Positions 3,429-51,344 of a stretch of DNA of 64,000 nucleotides are shown piece by piece. Positions within the stretch are counted from its first letter, which is position 1, and each line of letters opens with the position of its first letter. The translations under genes and the position numbers were made by a program. Source of the stretch: an archaeon (GTDB lineage: Archaea; B1Sed10-29; WALL01; JAGHAM01); contig JAIOSL010000043.1 of the NCBI GenBank assembly GCA_021107635.1, positions 9,873 through 73,872 of the forward strand. Direction: 5' to 3'. The notes beneath the pieces were generated by a model. That model was not told the DNA's origin. It saw only the letters and a list, made by a program, of their open reading frames with translations, and did not search any database.

Positions 3429-4364
3429 ATGAAAAAGCCCTACGCAACGCTACTCATAATACTCATAGCAACAGCTACATACCTAACAATGTCTCAAGGC
3501 AACCTCTACGTAAACCCAGTAACAAAAATGTACGACTATGGAGTCAAACGTGACCCAATCTGCGAACGCTGGGAAAACAACACCTGCAGAGAATACGTCT
3601 GCGCAAAAACAGAAAACAACACTTGCAAAGAATACGCCTACCAAATAAACTACCTAGGCGCGTTCACATACTCATTCATGCACATAGTAATCAAACACCT
3701 ACTAATAAACATGATAATGCTCCTAGCCATACGCTGGGTAATAGAAACCAAACTAGAAAAAAAACTATTGATAGGCATCTTCTTATTCTCTGGAATACTT
3801 GCAGGCCTAGGTTATGCACTAGCAAACCCACACAGTTGGGTAATAGGAGCTTCAGCAGGCGTAGCAGGAATGCTCGTAGCAGCATACCTAGTCGACGTGA
3901 AAAAAACAATCATAGTCCTCACAGGCTCAGTACTATTACTTTCTTGCATAGTACTCCCACTAACAGATTATACAATACACCAGTTAACCACAAGCCATGA
4001 ACAACAACTCAACAACACCCAACAAGAAATACAAAAAATAAACGAAACCATAAAACAAGTAGAAAAAACCATACAAGAAAAACAAGAAAAAGGAGAAAAT
4101 GCCACTCAAGAAATCAAACAAATACAAAACCTAACCAAACAACTAAACCAAACAATAATCAAAAAAGAAACAGTAACAACAGAAAAAGAAACAATAAAAG
4201 AAGGCTCAGAAAAAGAAAAAGAAACACCCGCCTCAGACCTAATACATATGCTAGGAGCACTATTTGGAATAGTCTACATGCTAGCATTCAAAAGAATATC
4301 CTTCGAATGGTTCATAACAGACCTCAAAAAATACTGGAACTGGATGAAAAAGAAATGGCACTAA
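3429..4364 (+). CDS. Rhomboid-family intramembrane serine protease with a long insert between the Ser and His helices
   Basis: FMHIVIKHLLINMIMLL matches the HxxxxHxxxN motif. GASAGVAGML holds the catalytic Ser and IHMLGALFG the catalytic His. About 85 aa of Q/K/E/T-rich sequence separates the last two. Confidence 0.7.
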   Translation: MKKPYATLLIILIATATYLTMSQGNLYVNPVTKMYDYGVKRDPICERWENNTCREYVCAKTENNTCKEYAYQINYLGAFTYSFMHIVIKHLLINMIMLLAIRWVIETKLEKKLLIGIFLFSGILAGLGYALANPHSWVIGASAGVAGMLVAAYLVDVKKTIIVLTGSVLLLSCIVLPLTDYTIHQLTTSHEQQLNNTQQEIQKINETIKQVEKTIQEKQEKGENATQEIKQIQNLTKQLNQTIIKKETVTTEKETIKEGSEKEKETPASDLIHMLGALFGIVYMLAFKRISFEWFITDLKKYWNWMKKKWH

Positions 4365-5369: not shown

Positions 5370-5753
5370 ATGAAAAAAATCAGGAGAGCAGTATATAACA
5401 GAGAAGGCCCACACAGAATGGAAGGAACCATGATAAAAATGCTTCACAACGAAAAAATTGGAAACTATGCGTTCATTCACAAAAATAGAGCTGAAAAACT
5501 AGGATTCAAAAAAGAACATATTACAAGCCATAGTATGAGAATAGAAGAAACTACTACCGAACAACTAAAAAGCACTGACCTAGTAAGTAAAAAAGGTTGG
5601 ATAACAGAAAAAGCAAAAACTGAACAAGGACAAGAATTACATTTAGTAACAATACCAGACAACCATGAAGTGCTAACAGGACTACTAGAAAAAGTAAAAA
5701 AAGGACAAGAACCAGAAATAAAAAAAGGTTCTTACCACTTTAAAATCTTTTAG
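5370..5753 (+). CDS. Hypothetical basic protein
   Basis: ORF immediately downstream of the NFACT-N gene on the same strand. I recognise no motif. Confidence 0.4.
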   Translation: MKKIRRAVYNREGPHRMEGTMIKMLHNEKIGNYAFIHKNRAEKLGFKKEHITSHSMRIEETTTEQLKSTDLVSKKGWITEKAKTEQGQELHLVTIPDNHEVLTGLLEKVKKGQEPEIKKGSYHFKIF

Positions 5754-8202
5754 ACACAAAGAAAGCTAACCCAGGCAATATAACAATCATCAACAAAAGC
5801 ATTGTCAAAGGATACTCACTGCCAGTATACTCAGTATCAACTTCAATAACAAAACTAGTCCTAGTCAAATTATAAAGCATAGAACCATCAGCCAAACTAT
5901 AAATACTTGCATTAGTAGTATACTGTCCAGAATCAGGAGGCACCCAAGAGAAACCCTTATAACGCATAGTTGAACCAGGAAGAACCGCTTCATCACTTGA
6001 ATTATCAAAGACTAAGTCGCCGCTTGAATTAAACACTCTAAAGATAATTTCATAACCCTCTCCTTGACCACCACGATTAGAAACTAAAACAAAAGACTCT
6101 GAAGTTATCCCACGTACTATAGGCTGAACCAACTCAATCTCCTCAACCACCAACTGAGCAGGAGGCAAATCCACTACAATCACAGTTGGATCATTATCAG
6201 AAATTCTACTAGTCCTATTAGTAACCACTAAATCTACAGCATAAGATCCTGGAGCACCACACGGAAAATCAGGAGTTATTTCAGCACTATGCCAAACACC
6301 AAAAGCAGCAGGACCCCTAACAGTCCAATAAAACTCAAAAATGGTACCAAGAGCAGCTTCACTACAAGAATGCATTGGAACACACTCACAAGAAGTCAAA
6401 TTTTGACAAGAGCCAGTGGCATCAAGAGAGATAACCTGGCCAGAGAAACAACTATATGTACCACCTGCATCTGCTAAAGGCTCAGAAGCAAAGAAAGAAA
6501 TGTTCCACAAATCAATCCGAGGAGTCTCCCCATAAACATCAGTAAACATCTCACCATACAAAACCACAGAAGGAACATCCACAACATTAACATCAGTCAT
6601 ATCAACACATTGCACCTCAGAAACACCAGAAAAAAAATCAGAACAATCAGGACACTCAGTACTATTAATAAGAAAACCAGACCCATTCAACACATAAAAA
6701 GTAGAATTAGTGTCTGATGTTCCAGAATCATGAAGGTTATCAAAACAAAAACGCCCCCAACCTTTTAACGGTTCTGTTGCCGTACCCGGTATATACTCAT
6801 ATGAACTGATATGACCACTTCGGTAAGCACCAAAACTGTTAATATCAGTTATTTCAATTTCTCCGCCAGAACTAGAACCAATAGAAATGTTTATTTCACA
6901 AAATTTCTCTTCAGTAATCGGATCTGTCACGTTAGTACAAGCAGCACAACTACAAACAGGACTCGTCTGCAAATGATACATAAGCCACGGAGCAATATTC
7001 ACAACATTCCCAAACCCAAGTTCTCCAGATTTAATCCACTCTTGAGTACCATTCCCACCAACATCAATATACACATCCTCAGGAGTATTAAACGCAATAT
7101 TTCGTGCAATCATCTCATAAATTTGACTAAGCTCAGCCGCATCAGGTGCAAAAAAGTAATACCCCCTAGCATCAGTACCAGAAGCATTAACAGCAGCAGC
7201 CATCGCAGTCAAAGTACCAACATCAGCACCACTCCCAAAACCAATAACATACAAAGAGATATTAGCAGCTCCGACTTCTCCTGACTTTGAAATAGCTTCA
7301 AGAATAGCAGCAGCAGTATCTGGAGGAGCATCACAATAATCATCAATTCCACCACATAACCCAGTAGACCAACAAGTACCCAATACATCTCTTGCTTGCC
7401 CATCAGTCATCAATAAAATAACCTTATTATCAGACAAAGTATAATCATCTAAAAGAGCCATAGAAACGTTAAGACCAGCACTTATAGGCGTATCGCCATA
7501 AGCAGTATAAGAATCAACACTAGAACTCAAAGAAATATTGTCATCACTCATACAATGAGTAACCTCAGCATGTGCCCTACGCGGCGAACCACTCCAATAA
7601 CCATAAGAAACCAACCCTAATCTAGTATCTGAATGCTCACTTCCATTCAAAACAGTAAAAGTAAAAAGTTTATCCGCATCCTTCGCATCACACATCTTAC
7701 AACCACAAGCACAACCCGGACCAACACAAGTAGCAGGATTACAATCCCCACAAGGATTTGCAGTAGACCCCCCAGAAGACCAAGGATCCCCCGGAGAACC
7801 ATCATAACAATCAAAATACATACTCCCAGAAACATCCGTAGAAACAACAGCACCAACAGGCCTAGGCTCATTAATATCAAGAACCAAACCAGTCATATTT
7901 ATCTCAAAAGTTGTGATGTTAATATCAAGAGGAAGACGTATCAGCATAGTAGAATTTTCACTGGATTGTGCAATTGAGATATTAATTTCAGAAGAACCAT
8001 CAGACAAATTAATCTCATAAGCATCAGCCAAACCCATATACCCACCAAAAAGACTACAAGTATGGTTATGACCAGTTGAATTATCATCGTCAATCAAATT
8101 AGTTTTAGCAGTACCTATGCAAAAAGTATCTTCCTGAAAACCAGAAAAACACAAGGGCAAAAGAATCAACAAAATCAACAAACCAGACGCAACTTTAATC
8201 AT
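5740..8202 (-). CDS. Large secreted, C-terminally anchored surface protein: vWA domain with a Cys-rich insert, plus PKD-like and CARDB-like modules (copy 1)
   Basis: Signal peptide MIKVASGLLILLILLPLCFSG. vWA MIDAS signature STDVSGSM ... ILLMTDGQA ... VIGFGSGAD. PKD-like segment FYWTVRG...GSYAVDLVVTN. CARDB-like segment LVVEEIELVQP...VLVSNRGG. C-terminal TM helix. The ATG at 8202 is preceded by AGGTGA; the track start at 8211 is a GTG inside that motif. Confidence 0.8.
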   Translation of the reverse strand: MIKVASGLLILLILLPLCFSGFQEDTFCIGTAKTNLIDDDNSTGHNHTCSLFGGYMGLADAYEINLSDGSSEINISIAQSSENSTMLIRLPLDINITTFEINMTGLVLDINEPRPVGAVVSTDVSGSMYFDCYDGSPGDPWSSGGSTANPCGDCNPATCVGPGCACGCKMCDAKDADKLFTFTVLNGSEHSDTRLGLVSYGYWSGSPRRAHAEVTHCMSDDNISLSSSVDSYTAYGDTPISAGLNVSMALLDDYTLSDNKVILLMTDGQARDVLGTCWSTGLCGGIDDYCDAPPDTAAAILEAISKSGEVGAANISLYVIGFGSGADVGTLTAMAAAVNASGTDARGYYFFAPDAAELSQIYEMIARNIAFNTPEDVYIDVGGNGTQEWIKSGELGFGNVVNIAPWLMYHLQTSPVCSCAACTNVTDPITEEKFCEINISIGSSSGGEIEITDINSFGAYRSGHISSYEYIPGTATEPLKGWGRFCFDNLHDSGTSDTNSTFYVLNGSGFLINSTECPDCSDFFSGVSEVQCVDMTDVNVVDVPSVVLYGEMFTDVYGETPRIDLWNISFFASEPLADAGGTYSCFSGQVISLDATGSCQNLTSCECVPMHSCSEAALGTIFEFYWTVRGPAAFGVWHSAEITPDFPCGAPGSYAVDLVVTNRTSRISDNDPTVIVVDLPPAQLVVEEIELVQPIVRGITSESFVLVSNRGGQGEGYEIIFRVFNSSGDLVFDNSSDEAVLPGSTMRYKGFSWVPPDSGQYTTNASIYSLADGSMLYNLTRTSFVIEVDTEYTGSEYPLTMLLLMIVILPGLAFFVSKRF
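6863..6987. repeat. 125-nt block identical to 10235..10359, inside the two vWA paralogues
   Basis: Aligned by eye. The run ccgccagaactagaaccaatagaaatg...gcaaatgatacataagcca is identical in both copies, while the flanking sequence is clearly diverged. Confidence 0.8.
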
Positions 8203-9049
8203 CAGAATCACCTACAAAAGAAAAACACAAAGCACCATCAACTGTACTGTTAAAAACCAAAACCCAGTCGTTCAAAGTAATATTCTCACCAGGATTCAAA
8301 ACCTTAGTTTCTTCAACACCGAAATGATTAACCAAAACTTCAACAGCACCCTCAGAACCACCTTCTGAAAAAGACGCAGAAAACAAATAATCACCAATCT
8401 TAACCGTCTGGCCACTCAAAACTGAAAACTTCTCTTCAACCTCCAACTCAGGATAATCCAACTTTAACCAAACACCATGATACACTTTTTTCAAAACAGA
8501 AAGCTCATAAGAATTAAGATTTGCCCCACTCCAATACCAAATATCAAAAACTTCACCTTCTTTTAAATTTAAAACATCCGTCCGATTATTAGGAAAAGCT
8601 ACATCCATACGCATTTTCACATAATCAGACAATTTGAAGTTAATACCATCAACAGTTACTTCCTGATTAAAACAAACAGAAAAATTCTCGCCCAAACTAG
8701 CCTTGCCAACACCGCTAGGATTCATGCAAGCACACTCCATAGGCAAGTCCTGCGGACAACTTACACAATCCTCCCTTGGATCAGCAATACCATTCCCACA
8801 AATCCACATTCCAGCATAAGGATCTCCAGAACCATTTTCAGTAACATTATTTTCTGGAGTGAAAGGAAGGACAGACCCATTAGAACCATTAGGATGAGCA
8901 CTGTTATTGACAGTCACATTAGGTAAAATCGGCTGAGTATCAGACATAGTCAAAACAAAAACTAAAACCAAAACAAACGACAATAAAATTAAACCAATAG
9001 CAACCTTAAGCAAACGAGGAGAAGTCCTAGCTATCAAACGTTTAACCAT
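8195..9049 (-). CDS. N-terminally anchored Cys-motif protein, partner of the vWA protein (copy 1)
   Basis: MVKRLIARTSPRLLKVAIGLILLSFVLVLVFVL forms a TM helix. The conserved motif is PYAGMWICGNGIADPREDCVSCPQDLPMECAC. Its stop overlaps the downstream ATG as ATGATTAA. Confidence 0.7.
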   Translation of the reverse strand: MVKRLIARTSPRLLKVAIGLILLSFVLVLVFVLTMSDTQPILPNVTVNNSAHPNGSNGSVLPFTPENNVTENGSGDPYAGMWICGNGIADPREDCVSCPQDLPMECACMNPSGVGKASLGENFSVCFNQEVTVDGINFKLSDYVKMRMDVAFPNNRTDVLNLKEGEVFDIWYWSGANLNSYELSVLKKVYHGVWLKLDYPELEVEEKFSVLSGQTVKIGDYLFSASFSEGGSEGAVEVLVNHFGVEETKVLNPGENITLNDWVLVFNSTVDGALCFSFVGDSDD

Positions 9050-9120
9050 AAAAAAGCACCAACAAAACAAAAGAAATAGAGATATATAAAAGTGCCGGCA
9101 AACTCCCCTCCAAAAAATGA

Positions 9121-11544
9121 TTAATGACGTTTAAACGCAAAGAACGCTATTCCTGGCAATACAACAATCACCAACAAAAGCACTGTCAAAGGATACTCAT
9201 CACCAGTGAATTCAGTATCAATATGAATAACTAAACTTGTCTTGTCAACCGTGTATATTATTGACTGGTCAGCAAGATCATGAATAGTAGCATTAACCGT
9301 GTACATTCCAGGAGAAGAAGGAATCCAAGAAAAACCACGATTTCTTAAAGTTGAACCAGGAAGACTCTCCTCAATCCTTGAACCAACAAAAACCAAGTCA
9401 TCGCTTTCATTAAACACTCTTAACGTTATGTTATAGCTAGAACCCTTACCACCCTTATTATAAACTAAAACAAAAGTATCAGAACGTATTCCATCCACTA
9501 TAGGCTGAACCAATTCAATTTCCTCAACCACCAACTGAGCAGGAGGCAAATCCACCTCAAGCACTGTCGAAGCATTATCAGAAATCCGGCTAGTCTTATT
9601 AGTAACCATTAAATCCACAGTATAAATCCCAGGAGCACCACACGGAAAATTAGGAGTTATCTCAGCACTATGCCAAACACCAAAAGCAGCAGGACCCTTA
9701 ACAGTCCAATAAAAATCAAAAATCGTATCAAGAGAAGTTTCATCACAAGAATGTAAAGGAGAACACCCACACGGAGTGAAATTCTGACAAGAATTAGAAG
9801 CATTAAAAGTCACAACTTGACCCGCATTACAGTAATAAGGTCCAGAAACATTAGCTAAAGGAGCACTAGCATAAAAAGAAATATCCCAATAATCAATTTG
9901 AGGCATTTCCCCATAAACATCCGTGAACATCTCACCATACAAAACAACAGAAGGAATATCCACAACAGGAATACTGGTTACATCAATACATCTCGCCTCA
10001 GAAGCATCAGAAAAAATATTAGAACACTCAGAACAACCAGAAATAATAAAACCAGAACCATTCAACACATAAAAAGTAGAATTAGTGCTTGCTGTATGCG
10101 CATTATCAAAACAAAAACTACCCCAACCCTTCAAAGGCTCTCCAGGACTTATAAGAACAGGATCTCGCTCAAGTGAATTTATGTGACCACTCATGTAAGC
10201 CCCAAACGCATTTATGTCAGTTATAGAAATATTCCCGCCAGAACTAGAACCAATAGAAATGTTTATTTCACAAAATTTCTCTTCAGTAATCGGATCTGTC
10301 ACGTTAGTACAAGCAGCACAACTACAAACAGGACTCGTCTGCAAATGATACATAAGCCAATCAGCAATATCCACAACATTTCCAAACCCAAGTTCTCCTG
10401 CCTTAGTCCATTCTTGAGTGCCATTCCCACCAACATCAATATACACATCCTCAGGAGTACTAAACGCAATATTTCTTGCAATCATTTCATAGATTTGACT
10501 GAGCTCAGCCGCACCCGGTGCAAAATAATAATATCCCCTAGCATCAGTTCCAGAAGCATTAACAGCAGCAGCCATCGCAGTCAAAGTAGCAGTGTTAGCT
10601 CCACTCCCAAAACCAATAGCATACAAAGAAATGTTAGCAGCTCCTGCTTCCCCTGACTTAGTAACAGCCTCAATTAAAGCATCAGCAGGATCTTGAGGAG
10701 CATCACAATAATCATCAATTCCCCCACATAATCCTGTGGACCAACAACTTCCTAAAACATCTCTTGCATCACCATCAGTCATCAACAAGATAACCTTATT
10801 GTCAGATAGTGTGTAGCTCTCCAAAAGATTCATTGAAACTTCAAGACCCGCACTTATCGGAGTGTCTCCATAAGCATCATAAGTGTTTATACTAGAATTC
10901 AAAGAATTATTGTCATCGCTCATACAATGATCCACTTCAGCGTGAGCAAGATAAGTTGGCCAACCAGTCCAATAACCATAAGATACCAAACCCAACCGAG
11001 TATCTAAATGCTCACTCCCATTCAAAATAGTGAAAGTAAAATTTCGAGCTGCATTCTTCGCATCACACATTTTACAACCACAAGGACAGCCAGCACCAAC
11101 GCAAGTAGCAGGATTACAATTACCACAGGGGTTCGGAATAGGACCTCCGGCATAACAATCAAAATACATGCTTCCAGAAACATCTGTAGCAACTACAGAA
11201 CCAACCGGCCTAGGCTCATTTATAACAAGCACCAAACCAGTCATATTTAGAGTAAAAGTAGTAAGATTAATGTCCAAAGGAAGCACAATTAACATGGTAG
11301 AATTTTCTCCAGAAGCCTGAATAGACAAATTCATCTCAGAAGAACCATCAGACAAATTAATCTCATAAGCATCAGCCAAACCCATATACCCATCAGGACA
11401 AAAATGGTAATAGCCAGTTGAATTCTGAATATCAACATAATTAGTCTGAACACCAAGTTCACAAAACTCATCTCTCCAAACACCAGAAAAACACACCGGC
11501 AAAAGCACCAACAAAACCAACACACCAGAAATAAGCTTAGTCAT
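9121..11544 (-). CDS. Large secreted, anchored vWA/PKD-like/CARDB-like surface protein (copy 2, paralogue of 5740..8202)
   Basis: Same architecture as copy 1: ATDVSGSM, LLMTDGDA, AIGFGSGAN, and the identical central peptide WLMYHLQTSPVCSCAACTNVTDPITEEKFCEINISIGSSSGG. The ATG at 11544 is preceded by AGGTGA. Confidence 0.8.
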   Translation of the reverse strand: MTKLISGVLVLLVLLPVCFSGVWRDEFCELGVQTNYVDIQNSTGYYHFCPDGYMGLADAYEINLSDGSSEMNLSIQASGENSTMLIVLPLDINLTTFTLNMTGLVLVINEPRPVGSVVATDVSGSMYFDCYAGGPIPNPCGNCNPATCVGAGCPCGCKMCDAKNAARNFTFTILNGSEHLDTRLGLVSYGYWTGWPTYLAHAEVDHCMSDDNNSLNSSINTYDAYGDTPISAGLEVSMNLLESYTLSDNKVILLMTDGDARDVLGSCWSTGLCGGIDDYCDAPQDPADALIEAVTKSGEAGAANISLYAIGFGSGANTATLTAMAAAVNASGTDARGYYYFAPGAAELSQIYEMIARNIAFSTPEDVYIDVGGNGTQEWTKAGELGFGNVVDIADWLMYHLQTSPVCSCAACTNVTDPITEEKFCEINISIGSSSGGNISITDINAFGAYMSGHINSLERDPVLISPGEPLKGWGSFCFDNAHTASTNSTFYVLNGSGFIISGCSECSNIFSDASEARCIDVTSIPVVDIPSVVLYGEMFTDVYGEMPQIDYWDISFYASAPLANVSGPYYCNAGQVVTFNASNSCQNFTPCGCSPLHSCDETSLDTIFDFYWTVKGPAAFGVWHSAEITPNFPCGAPGIYTVDLMVTNKTSRISDNASTVLEVDLPPAQLVVEEIELVQPIVDGIRSDTFVLVYNKGGKGSSYNITLRVFNESDDLVFVGSRIEESLPGSTLRNRGFSWIPSSPGMYTVNATIHDLADQSIIYTVDKTSLVIHIDTEFTGDEYPLTVLLLVIVVLPGIAFFAFKRH
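10235..10359. repeat. Second copy of the 125-nt identical block (partner 6863..6987)
   Basis: Same by-eye alignment as for the partner block. Confidence 0.8.
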
Positions 11545-12364
11545 TAGAATCACCTACAAAAGAAAAACACATTGCTCCATCAATAGTGCCATTAAATGCT
11601 AAAACAGTGTCTCCCAAAGTAATATTTTCATTAAGATTCAAAATCTTAGTTTCTTCAGCACCAAAGTAACTAATTGAAACCTCCACAGTTTCTTCAGAAC
11701 TATTCTCTAAAAAAGACGAACTGAACAAAAAATCACCAATTTTAATTTTCTGACTGTTTAAAACTGAAAAGTCTTCTTCAGCATTTAATTCACGATAATC
11801 CAAATTCAACCAAACACCATGATGTACATTCTTCAACACAGAAAGCTTGTAAGAGTTAAGATCTGCTCCATCCCAATACCACACATCAATAACAGTTCCT
11901 TCCTCAGGTCTTAAAACTTCTTCTTTTCCACTCGGAAAACTCACATCAACACGCGTTTTAGTATAATCAGATAACAAAAACTCAATGTCATCAACAGAAA
12001 CCTTCTGATTAAAGCACACGGAAAAATTCTCTCCAAGACTAGCCGTTTTAGAACCATAATTGGATGTTGTGCAAGCACATTCCACCGGCAAATCCTGAGG
12101 ACAACTCAAACAATCCTCCCTCGGATCAGCAATACCATTCCCACAAATCCACATTCCAGCATAAGGATCAACGCTAGGGTTATCAACCTTTGGGACAGGA
12201 ATATCCTTGACATCAGGAAGAGGAGCATTGTTAACATCTACTTTTGGAACAACCCTAGGACGAAGCAAAGCATAAAAAATAAGCAAAATAAACGATAATA
12301 AAACTAACCCGATTACAACCTTAATCAAAAGAGGAGAAGAATCCTTTTTTAAACGTTTAACCAT
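11537..12364 (-). CDS. N-terminally anchored Cys-motif protein (copy 2, paralogue of 8195..9049)
   Basis: MVKRLKKDSSPLLIKVVIGLVLLSFILLIF forms a TM helix. The motif PYAGMWICGNGIADPREDCLSCPQDLPVECAC is present. Its stop overlaps the downstream ATG as ATGACTAA. Confidence 0.7.
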   Translation of the reverse strand: MVKRLKKDSSPLLIKVVIGLVLLSFILLIFYALLRPRVVPKVDVNNAPLPDVKDIPVPKVDNPSVDPYAGMWICGNGIADPREDCLSCPQDLPVECACTTSNYGSKTASLGENFSVCFNQKVSVDDIEFLLSDYTKTRVDVSFPSGKEEVLRPEEGTVIDVWYWDGADLNSYKLSVLKNVHHGVWLNLDYRELNAEEDFSVLNSQKIKIGDFLFSSSFLENSSEETVEVSISYFGAEETKILNLNENITLGDTVLAFNGTIDGAMCFSFVGDSND

Positions 12365-12590
12365 TAAAATTACACCAGTAAAATAAAAAGAAGTAGAAGT
12401 ATATAATAATAAGGAAAAAAAGTGCAAGAAGAAAAGTAAAACTTTACGTAAGATTACGAAATTCTTTTATAATACCTCTTCCATAAGTTAGTTTGGAGAG
12501 TGCTTTCCGTTTTTTAAAAAAACCTACCAAGAGTTCCCTAACCAAGCGCGCGAGCCCTCTCCAACCTTTCTCGCATCGGGGGGTGCAAGA

Positions 12591-12749
12591 ATGCGAAGAG
12601 ACGTTGAAAAAGTTATTAATAGTTATAAAAATGGAGAAATAGGACTCTTTGAGGCATCTAAAATTGTTGATATGCATCCTAAAGAGTTTCTTGATGTTCT
12701 AGTACAAAGAAATAAATTAAAAGCTGCAGCTATTTGCAGCTCTGCATAA
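12591..12749 (+). CDS. Small ORF (52 aa), possibly a UPF0175-like HTH protein
   Basis: MRRDVEKVINSYKNGEIGLFEASKIVDMHPKEFLDVLVQRNKL... resembles the UPF0175 pattern (y..g.iSlg.AAe.ag....eF...l...). It is below the track cutoff and has no partner toxin gene. Confidence 0.3.
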   Translation: MRRDVEKVINSYKNGEIGLFEASKIVDMHPKEFLDVLVQRNKLKAAAICSSA

Positions 12750-51201: not shown

Positions 51202-51206
51202 TCAAT

Positions 51207-51300
51207 GCGCCAATAGTCTAGCCTGGTAGGACTCAAGCTTGCCACTTTTCGCGAGAAAAGCAAAGAGCTTGTGGCGGGGGTTCAAATCCCCCTTGGCGCA
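51207..51300 (+). tRNA. tRNA-Gly(GCC) with a canonical 37/38 intron (about 21 nt)
   Basis: Acceptor GCGCCAA/TTGGCGC, anticodon arm CAAGC-TTGCCA[CTTTTCGCGAGAAAAGCAAAG]A-GCTTG, T arm GGGGG-TTCAAAT-CCCCC. It starts 5 nt after the preceding tRNA. Confidence 0.85.
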
Positions 51301-51344
51301 TTTTCAAAAAAAGATTTATACTAGCAACAGTTAAACATTATCAA

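Follow-up and report, generated by a model that had tools for sequence, protein, structure and literature searches.

A tandemly duplicated small–large gene cassette encoding a candidate two-chain surface adhesin in an uncultured archaeon

Most DPANN archaea are uncultured, and they rely on contact with other cells or surfaces. Many fast-evolving surface proteins have already been recorded in their genomes, and, to our knowledge, few DPANN surface systems have been defined beyond lists of “large secreted proteins”. Here, we analyze a pair of adjacent genes, one small and one large, that is present twice in tandem on the minus strand of a 64,000-nucleotide (nt) stretch of a contig (JAIOSL010000043.1, positions 9,873 to 73,872) from a Diapherotrites-like DPANN archaeon with a small genome; the stretch is referred to below as the window. 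The large gene encodes a protein with a von Willebrand factor type A (VWA) head, a stalk of PKD-like and CARDB domains, and a C-terminal transmembrane (TM) tail that we call EYP-TM, and the small gene encodes a membrane protein of a new family. On balance, the two are probably the chains of one membrane-anchored surface adhesin.

Among proteins of solved structure, profile searches of the Protein Data Bank (PDB) place the VWA region closest to pilus or fimbrial tip adhesins, namely Mfa5 of Porphyromonas gingivalis (6tnj/6to1) and SpaC of Lacticaseibacillus rhamnosus (6m48), together with the VWA protein 7w6b (E = 4e-9 to 9e-7). These share with the large protein a complete metal ion-dependent adhesion site (MIDAS) and a head mounted on immunoglobulin (Ig)-like domains. 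However, adhesins of the Mfa5/SpaC type are bacterial and are built into pili, whereas the large protein is archaeal, has a TM tail unlike the attachment of a pilus subunit, is rich in N-glycosylation sequons, and has a coupled small partner that belongs to a new family.

In sequence profiles, the nearest relatives of the large protein are uncharacterized archaeal pilin-like VWA proteins, P0006 (on an Aenigmatarchaeia contig) and those of loci L018–L063. They belong to the same VWA subfamily (profile scores of 62–173 bits), often have a Cys-rich insert after DxSGSM, in several cases share the same N-domain, and are encoded directly downstream of a gene for a small membrane protein. They differ in having a class III signal, a C-terminal PY(L/M)WGPxIEVR(T/S)W in place of the PKD–CARDB–EYP-TM module, and a non-homologous partner. 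The archaeal class III signal peptides are carried by most of the distant VWA proteins and by the upstream open reading frame (ORF) of about 170 codons alike. The operon type of L018–L063 (e.g., L031 2391–5563 and L041 2203–5378) consists of this ~170-aa ORF (…KGQ|VWSLDF…) followed by a ~900-aa VWA protein with a class III signal and a 7–9-Cys insert right after DxSGSM; it is widespread and uncharacterized. At L020 (1157–6280), L023 (763–4437), and L044 (3175–8332), the VWA protein has a signal peptide and the window-type N-domain, and its upstream partner is a ~190-aa type II membrane protein whose linker is acidic and whose helical domain contains Cys; it is unrelated to the small family. 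Homology of the small family to the partners of these distant VWA genes was considered and rejected, the hhalign probabilities being 10% for the pilin-like and 4% for the other partners.

Two further comparisons are analogies only. From general knowledge, integrin α/β likewise consists of two single-pass chains with a MIDAS-bearing VWA-type head on an Ig-like stalk, but the small chain of the cassette has no homology to integrins, and the cassette has the opposite topology, one chain being type II and the other type I. In the Sulfolobales, SlaA and SlaB are two glycosylated surface proteins, one large and one small, that function jointly and are encoded side by side; the cassette proteins are not similar to them in sequence, and the cassette differs in having both proteins anchored, a small-then-large order, and a MIDAS head. 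Strain-specific secreted surface proteins of DPANN archaea with PKD and CARDB domains, such as Mia14, evolve fast and have been proposed to act in cell–cell contact (PMC5498576); PKD-like and CARDB domains are thus shared, whereas a VWA head, an EYP-TM tail, or a coupled small partner has not been described for them. Neither the small family, nor its obligatory coupling to a stalk, nor the modular head is described in the libraries or literature searched, in agreement with an earlier reading of the DNA alone (the original prediction), which did not recognize the pairing as a described archaeal system.

The genes of the two cassettes and the junctions within them are as follows, in window coordinates.

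12364 to 11537, minus strand: small1, 275 aa, ATG to TAA, type II membrane protein; TM segment (~aa 11–34), linker rich in Pro and Asn, Cys knot (aa 67–98), all-β domain (aa 105–271).
11544 to 9121, minus strand: large1, 807 aa, ATG to TAA, type I surface protein; in order, signal peptide, N-domain of about 95 aa, VWA domain, middle domain, PKD-like domain, CARDB domain, EYP-TM-basic tail.
9049 to 8195, minus strand: small2, 284 aa, ATG to TAA, paralogue of small1 (61% identity).
8202 to 5740, minus strand: large2, 820 aa, ATG to TAA, paralogue of large1 (72% identity).
11537 to 11555, minus strand: coupling junction 1; AGGTGA at 11555–11550, 5-nt spacer, large1 ATG at 11544–11542, small1 TAA at 11539–11537.
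8195 to 8213, minus strand: coupling junction 2; AGGTGA at 8213–8208, large2 ATG at 8202–8200, small2 TAA at 8197–8195.

All four ORFs are present, with starts read from the sequence, and they form two consecutive two-gene cassettes, as had been predicted. The motifs quoted for the small proteins, PYAGMWICGNGIADPREDC(L/V)SCPQDLP(V/M)ECAC and FSFVGDS(N/D)D, and for the large ones, DVSGSM, LLMTDG, IGFGSGA, and CG(N/D)CNPATCVG.GC.CGCKMCDAK, were all found, and the identities between the copies bear out a tandem duplication of the whole unit. The term “giant” for the second protein must be dropped, as the large proteins have only 807 and 820 residues. In both cassettes, the stop of the small gene overlaps the start of the large gene, the sequences being ATGACTAA (11544–11537) and ATGATTAA (8202–8195), with AGGTGA 5 nt 5′ of each ATG.

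This overlap, which was also part of the original prediction, is a general property of the unit. Nine core cassettes on six contigs were compared (two in the window, two in L008, and one each in L001, L005, L006, L007, and L010), and in 9/9 the coupling geometry is kept and the next gene encodes an orthologue of the large protein (BLASTP E from 1e-21 to 1e-122) whose D.SGSM lies at aa 116–135. The junctions are a 4-nt ATGA overlap, an 8-nt overlap, or a start placed 2 nt after the stop (the tally is seven ATGA overlaps, two 8-nt overlaps, and one 2-nt gap). At every core junction, GGAGG or AGGTGA lies inside the last codons of the small gene; therefore, the small family probably ends in a conserved “GG(E/D)” because of a constraint at the nucleotide level.

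A proposed test was whether the small family is found consistently beside VWA genes. For the core cassettes it is; the distant members of the family, on the other hand, have partners without a VWA domain, and these have kept the stalk module. Thus, P0023 (J7L23_04840), a distant member in a metagenome-assembled genome (MAG) of Candidatus Diapherotrites, occupies the chromosomal slot of the window cassette, next to Tyw1, PRC, and UPF0175, and its stop is overlapped by 4 nt by a 572-aa gene. The product of that gene (at L064) has neither a VWA domain nor DxSxS and bears a Cys-rich head with 57 Cys, and its PKD–CARDB–EYP-TM module matches positions 541–783 of the large-protein profile (E = 1e-58) and shares 38% identity with the stalk of the L010 protein, which has a VWA head. 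The protein upstream of P0019 (L014/L015) has a Cys-repeat head and matches profile positions 647–780 (E = 1.5e-25). Small-family genes are placed directly 5′ of a gene ending in CARDB and the EYP-TM tail. Since the VWA-less partners of distant members keep PKD–CARDB–EYP-TM, the constant partner of the small family is, at the level of sequence, the stalk and anchor module and not the VWA head. The P0023 MAG also has a core-type pair at a separate locus (P0028, J7L23_04545, to which the small protein of L010 is ≥90% identical); hence, two deeply diverged pairs coexist in one Diapherotrites MAG, and in both the small gene has remained beside its own large gene.

The large proteins have a Sec-type signal peptide and a C-terminal TM segment followed by basic residues. 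Two parts of large1 are of particular concern here.

10465 to 11202, minus strand: VWA domain of large1, aa 115–360, from Pfam, invariant columns, the β/α pattern of the AlphaFold2 (AF2) model, and PDB profile matches.
9124 to 9852, minus strand: stalk and anchor module of large1, aa ~565–807; PKD-like domain, CARDB domain, and EYPLTVLLLVIVVLPGIAFFAFKRH tail.

The modules had been predicted as VWA, PKD-like, and CARDB-like, and they hold to different degrees. With Pfam gathering cut-offs of 23.8 (VWA), 23.5 (PKD), and 22.7 bits (CARDB) for the window copies, the VWA domain (PF00092) scores 23.9 bits in large1 and 20.4 in large2, and 39.4, 61.0, and 75.7 bits in orthologues. The low scores of the window copies arise because two Cys-rich insertions interrupt the domain. 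The MIDAS residues (D121, S123, S125, T228, and D257 in large1) are invariant columns in seven orthologues, so that the VWA assignment stands on these residues and on the orthologue scores. The insertions of large1, at about aa 127–160 (the β1–α1 loop; aa 123–156 in the AF2 model) and ~260–285, are both of low confidence in AF2. In the VWA fold, the β1–α1 loop after DxSGSM is on the ligand-binding face. The first insertion, directly after DxSGSM, is present in 5/7 orthologues and missing from L008a and L010, and it is therefore an optional decoration. In the AF2 model of large1, which derives from a shallow alignment, aa 116–360 alternate β and α elements with a predicted local distance difference test (pLDDT) score of 60–78; the model was left out of the fold search because its mean pLDDT is 38.8.

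For CARDB (PF07705), the window copy scores 12.4 bits and the aligned region of L010 scores 32.4, above the cut-off, so that this assignment is supported only by way of the orthologue; the same C-terminal region has weak PDB profile matches to 2kl6 and 3idu. PKD (PF00801/PF18911) is below threshold in the window (19.0 bits, cut-off 23.5) and in L010 (21.4, cut-off 27), and the homologous module of the L064 partner reaches 28.3 bits, above 23.5. As predicted, the large proteins are packed with sequons, at 3.1–3.2 per 100 aa vs. 0.67 in 24 other window proteins (about 5-fold), and their Cys content is 3.5% vs. 1.2% in the same 24 proteins (about 3-fold).

The tail of the large partners consists of E-Y-(P/G/S), a TM segment with a central Pro, (A)F/Y, and then K/R. 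It lies at 9124–9204 and 5743–5823 in the window and is also found in L008, L010, L014/L015, and L064; among the fetched sequences, it occurs only on these partners. The tail is tripartite like exosortase/archaeosortase signals, but a known C-terminal sorting signal (PGF-CTERM and related) was rejected for want of a signature match; NCBIfam gave no match at E ≤ 1 for either large protein, CTERM sorting domains included. A rhomboid protease gene (window 3429–4364) is found two genes away in all three syntenic genomes. It is not specific evidence, because the whole neighborhood is syntenic, with housekeeping proteins 70–80% identical. Processing or shedding might even take place at the conserved Pro-containing TM tail, for example through this rhomboid protease.

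The small protein has a single N-terminal hydrophobic helix with basic residues before it, which indicates a signal anchor with its N-terminus inside. It had been described as the anchor protein of the pair, and the N-terminal TM segment is indeed there; since both proteins carry their own TM segment, however, it is not specifically the anchor. After the TM segment comes a variable, Pro/Asn-rich linker that carries sequons. Alignments of relatives show six invariant Cys (C74, C85, C88, C96, C98, and C117 in small1), and the hallmarks of the family are the N-terminal TM segment, the six Cys, CGN, CP, an LGE.F.LC motif, and a β-domain of ~150 aa. In the AF2 model of small1, aa 105–271 (~165 aa) are all-β with pLDDT 80–90, although only three sequences went into it.

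The family is unannotated. The small proteins have no significant match in Pfam, NCBIfam, PADLOC, or PHROGs; Foldseek comparison of the small-protein model with the PDB and BFVD gave nothing at E ≤ 0.001 (best PDB TM-score of ~0.2), its viral matches being short β-fragments of ~80 aa only; and a sequence-profile search of the PDB returned nothing beyond Ig proteins designed de novo and TM noise. When 5.8 billion proteins were searched with a word index, the only matches were the window genes K8R43_04890 and K8R43_04880 (labeled “archaeon” at NCBI) and one relative. A HMMER profile search of 1.84 billion representatives gave 23 small-family proteins at E ≤ 1e-3, two of them the window's own, and nine of the 23 are full-length or nearly so at E ≤ 2e-29 (P0001, P0003, P0007–P0009, and P0011–P0014). 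A metagenome scan with the small-family alignment produced pattern matches, none of which was confirmed. The small family is thus very rare and confined to a narrow clade. A scan of genome contigs yielded only unrelated proteins that resemble the family in the Cys motif (L003 of Bacteroidia and L004 of Woesearchaeota), and these were discarded.

The motif “PYAGMWICGNG…” is not a unique signature, being a single copy of a widespread mini-repeat, CGNGxCExGEDCxxCPxDC, which occurs in tandem in unrelated secreted bacterial and archaeal proteins (P0015 has 11 copies). The Cys-rich repeat of the DUF4215/Myxococcus type (PF13948) was rejected as the identity of the small-protein Cys motif, since the small proteins have no Pfam match to it. 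Among the tandem-motif proteins, P0010 reaches 74 bits summed against DUF4215, with no single passing stretch, and P0016 reaches 22.9, below 27; at best, the small-protein motif is loosely related to DUF4215. The Candidatus Woesearchaeota MAG WJJS01000008.1 (L004, 7907–11415) encodes a 457-aa secreted protein with two CGNG…CP.D motifs, each followed by a domain of ~150 aa, and its gene lies among three whose products have pilin-like hydrophobic N-termini.

Both copies in the window are maintained coding genes under purifying selection, as judged from dN/dS values between them of 0.375 (small) and 0.362 (large); in the large gene, dN/dS is lowest in the VWA domain (0.08–0.27). Divergence between them is uneven, and one segment stands apart.

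10258 to 10377, minus strand: probable gene-conversion tract, large1 aa 390–429; dS 0.02 vs. 0.4–1.3 in most 40-codon segments.

The counterpart of the tract in large2 is at ~6886–7005. The DNA is nearly identical, with dN slightly above dS, and the tract spans the region of the conserved CxC…C motif (WLMYHLQTSPVCSCAACTNVTDPITEEKFC). The low dS amid otherwise patchy synonymous divergence points to at least one tract of gene conversion, which was probably recent. The order ThyX, Tyw1, PRC, cassette(s), NFACT, rhomboid, GGR is common to the window, L008 (a contig of 1.17 Mb), and L010. Between these genomes, the housekeeping neighbors are 70–80% identical, as against 27–35% for the cassette proteins, and the cassette therefore evolves far faster. 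Tandem pairs are present in the window, in L008, and, judging by a 5′ EYP-tail fragment, in L001, while L010 and L064 have one cassette each. Within one genome, the paralogues resemble each other more than they resemble any copy from another, and both window large proteins match the L008 B copy best; this speaks for lineage-specific duplication or concerted evolution and is consistent with the conversion tract. Across cassettes, small and large divergence are correlated (r = 0.65, Mantel p = 2e-4), a correlation confounded by shared phylogeny.

We propose that each cassette would supply both chains of one membrane-anchored complex at the cell surface. The small chain, N-in/C-out, would display the Cys knot and the all-β domain on a glycosylated linker. 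The large chain would be exported by its Sec-type signal peptide and held by the C-terminal TM tail, and its PKD-like/CARDB stalk would carry the VWA head, in which the MIDAS could bind an acidic ligand residue through a divalent cation, with the Cys-rich loops inserted at the MIDAS face. Termination–reinitiation coupling, through the overlap and the Shine-Dalgarno sequence in the last codons of the small gene, would yield both chains together and in roughly equal amounts. The small chain would then find its docking site on the large chain in the conserved PKD–CARDB–TM base. Heads are exchangeable, being VWA in the window clade and Cys-rich in the sister paralogue, and the unit duplicates as one, diverges fast, and undergoes gene conversion, which would give variant receptor pairs.

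Several points weigh against an adhesin of two docked chains. The role of the small β-domain cannot be read from its fold, because the domain is without a structural relative, and the model of the large protein is poor beyond the VWA domain. The TM segment and linker are the least conserved parts of the small protein (ω of 0.7–1.3), which argues against a conserved TM–TM contact. Moreover, 46 metagenomic loci with distant N-domain/VWA relatives contain no small-family gene, and VWA domains also have non-adhesive roles.

An alternative explanation of the pairing concerns the state of the small protein, which might not be a stable subunit at all but serve solely to mature or assemble the large protein. 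It could do so as a chaperone tethered to the membrane, by helping the Cys-rich modules to fold or to form disulfides, or by processing or sorting the EYP-TM tail. Strict adjacency and coupling would fit this equally well, the small protein is without a recognizable adhesive domain, and the conserved part of the partner, the tail-proximal stalk with the EYP-TM tail, is where a sorting or processing factor would act. Nevertheless, the stop/start overlap favors synthesis in near-equimolar amounts, and a factor that is catalytic or recycled would not usually be made in that way. The small protein also keeps pace with the large one in its rate of evolution and has been co-duplicated with it each time, as is typical of co-evolving subunits. 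Moreover, it has no enzyme-like motif and is itself, by its sequence, heavily glycosylation-prone and surface-exposed. We regard a maturation factor as rather unlikely, though it is the alternative to be taken most seriously.

Less likely still is a structural pair of the cell envelope, in which the large protein would form a canopy with a small anchored partner, as in SlaA/SlaB, and adhesion would be secondary. The module pairs a large with a small surface protein, has abundant signals for N-glycosylation, and contains Ig-like PKD and CARDB domains, as archaeal surface-layer (S-layer) proteins do, and PKD/CARDB proteins of DPANN have been discussed as surface-layer components (PMC5498576). 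Yet each of the two proteins is anchored by a TM segment of its own, ligand binding is indicated by the invariant MIDAS, heads can be exchanged, and neither protein resembles S-layer families in Pfam or NCBIfam. One to two copies per locus, together with extreme divergence, fit variable adhesins better than a self-assembling lattice.

It is tempting to see a pilus-associated tip adhesin in the large protein and a diverged minor pilin in the small one, given that the best PDB relatives are pilus tip adhesins and that the nearest outgroup VWA proteins (L018–L063 and P0006) combine pilin-like class III signals with a pilin-like ORF upstream and the shared Cys-rich insert. However, the N-termini in the window, MVKRLKKDSSPLLIK… and MTKLISGVLVLL…CFSG, are without the class III motif (K/R)G|hydrophobic, the large protein combines a Sec-type signal peptide with a C-terminal anchor, the match of the small family to the pilin-like partners in hhalign covers the TM segment only, and there are no pilin-like ORFs in the 64-kb window, all of which makes this explanation very improbable. 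That the two genes are functionally unrelated neighbors, merely co-transcribed, is scarcely credible when adjacency, order, overlap geometry, and the embedded Shine-Dalgarno sequence are kept in every cassette and the pairing survives divergence to ~27% identity and head swapping. A viral or defense origin was also considered and set aside, as there were no PADLOC or PHROGs matches and neither gene is found on viral contigs.

Returning to the two-chain adhesin, we can tentatively go one step further and imagine a lineage-specific, integrin-like receptor platform of Diapherotrites-type DPANN. Here, a type II chain of new fold would clamp the type I PKD–CARDB–EYP-TM base, the heads would be modular (MIDAS/VWA or Cys-rich knots), and duplication, head swapping, and conversion would generate a repertoire of receptors for partner cells or surfaces. 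This is possible, though less probable than the adhesin itself. A role in host attachment or episymbiosis would be plausible. What the analysis defines is a compact unit, in which a new small-protein family is obligately and translationally coupled to a modular, adhesin-like protein, and the model predicts that the two chains associate 1:1 by way of the stalk. Rapid divergence, duplication of both genes together, exchange of heads, and gene conversion make up a pattern typical of interaction interfaces. The reach of the finding is limited by the rarity of the family and by its confinement to a narrow, uncultured clade.

The signals around the cassettes are as follows.

12373 to 12409, minus strand: promoter-like region of cassette 1, putative function; TTATTATATA at 12409–12400, GGTG at 12376–12373.
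9057 to 9117, minus strand: inter-cassette spacer; T6 at 9117–9112 after the large1 stop, TTTATATAT at 9090–9082, GGTG at 9060–9057.
5720 to 5726, minus strand: T7 run, 14 nt past the large2 stop; candidate transcription end.

A TATA-like box of its own had been claimed for each cassette, and both boxes, TTATTATATA and TTTATATAT, were located, ~37–40 nt 5′ of the small-gene ATGs, with GGTG 8–12 nt 5′ of each ATG. The orthologous cassettes also have A/T boxes near −40. By general archaeal rules, the inter-cassette spacer would act as terminator and promoter. In a scan for bacterial σ70 promoters and intrinsic terminators, promoter-like sites were not enriched, the models being bacterial and unsuited to an archaeon. 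On the plus strand, paired 157-aa ORFs lie antisense at matching positions inside the large genes (6811–7284 and 10183–10656); most likely, they are artefacts of skewed codon composition (GC skew of about −0.3 over the cassettes) and not genes.

The DNA 5′ of small1 (12438–12590, minus strand) is 81% identical to L008 9790–9935 and is thus as conserved as coding DNA. It includes a GC-rich block of ~110 nt, GCACCCCCCG…GGTTGGAGAGGGC…GCGCTTGGTTAGGGAACTCTTGGTAGG, followed by a T-run, and a palindromic element, TTTCGTAA(T/C)CTTACGTAAA, lies ~75–90 nt before the small1 ATG. The conserved non-coding block has no Rfam match and no fold better than those of shuffled sequences; it might bind a regulator or represent a small RNA that has yet to be described. 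Divergent from the cassette, a 52-aa ORF (MRRDVEKVINSYKNGEIGLFEASKIVDMHPKEFLDVLVQRNKL…) occupies 12591–12749 on the plus strand. Its counterpart in L008 has 50 aa; it scores 20.2 bits for UPF0175, below the Pfam cut-off of 27.9, and the L065 counterpart is annotated as a weak UPF0175. Finally, far from the cassettes, ARAGORN identifies a tRNA-Ala(TGC) at 51206–51301 on the plus strand. With 96 nt, it is longer than standard; tRNA introns are common in archaea, and this tRNA may contain one.

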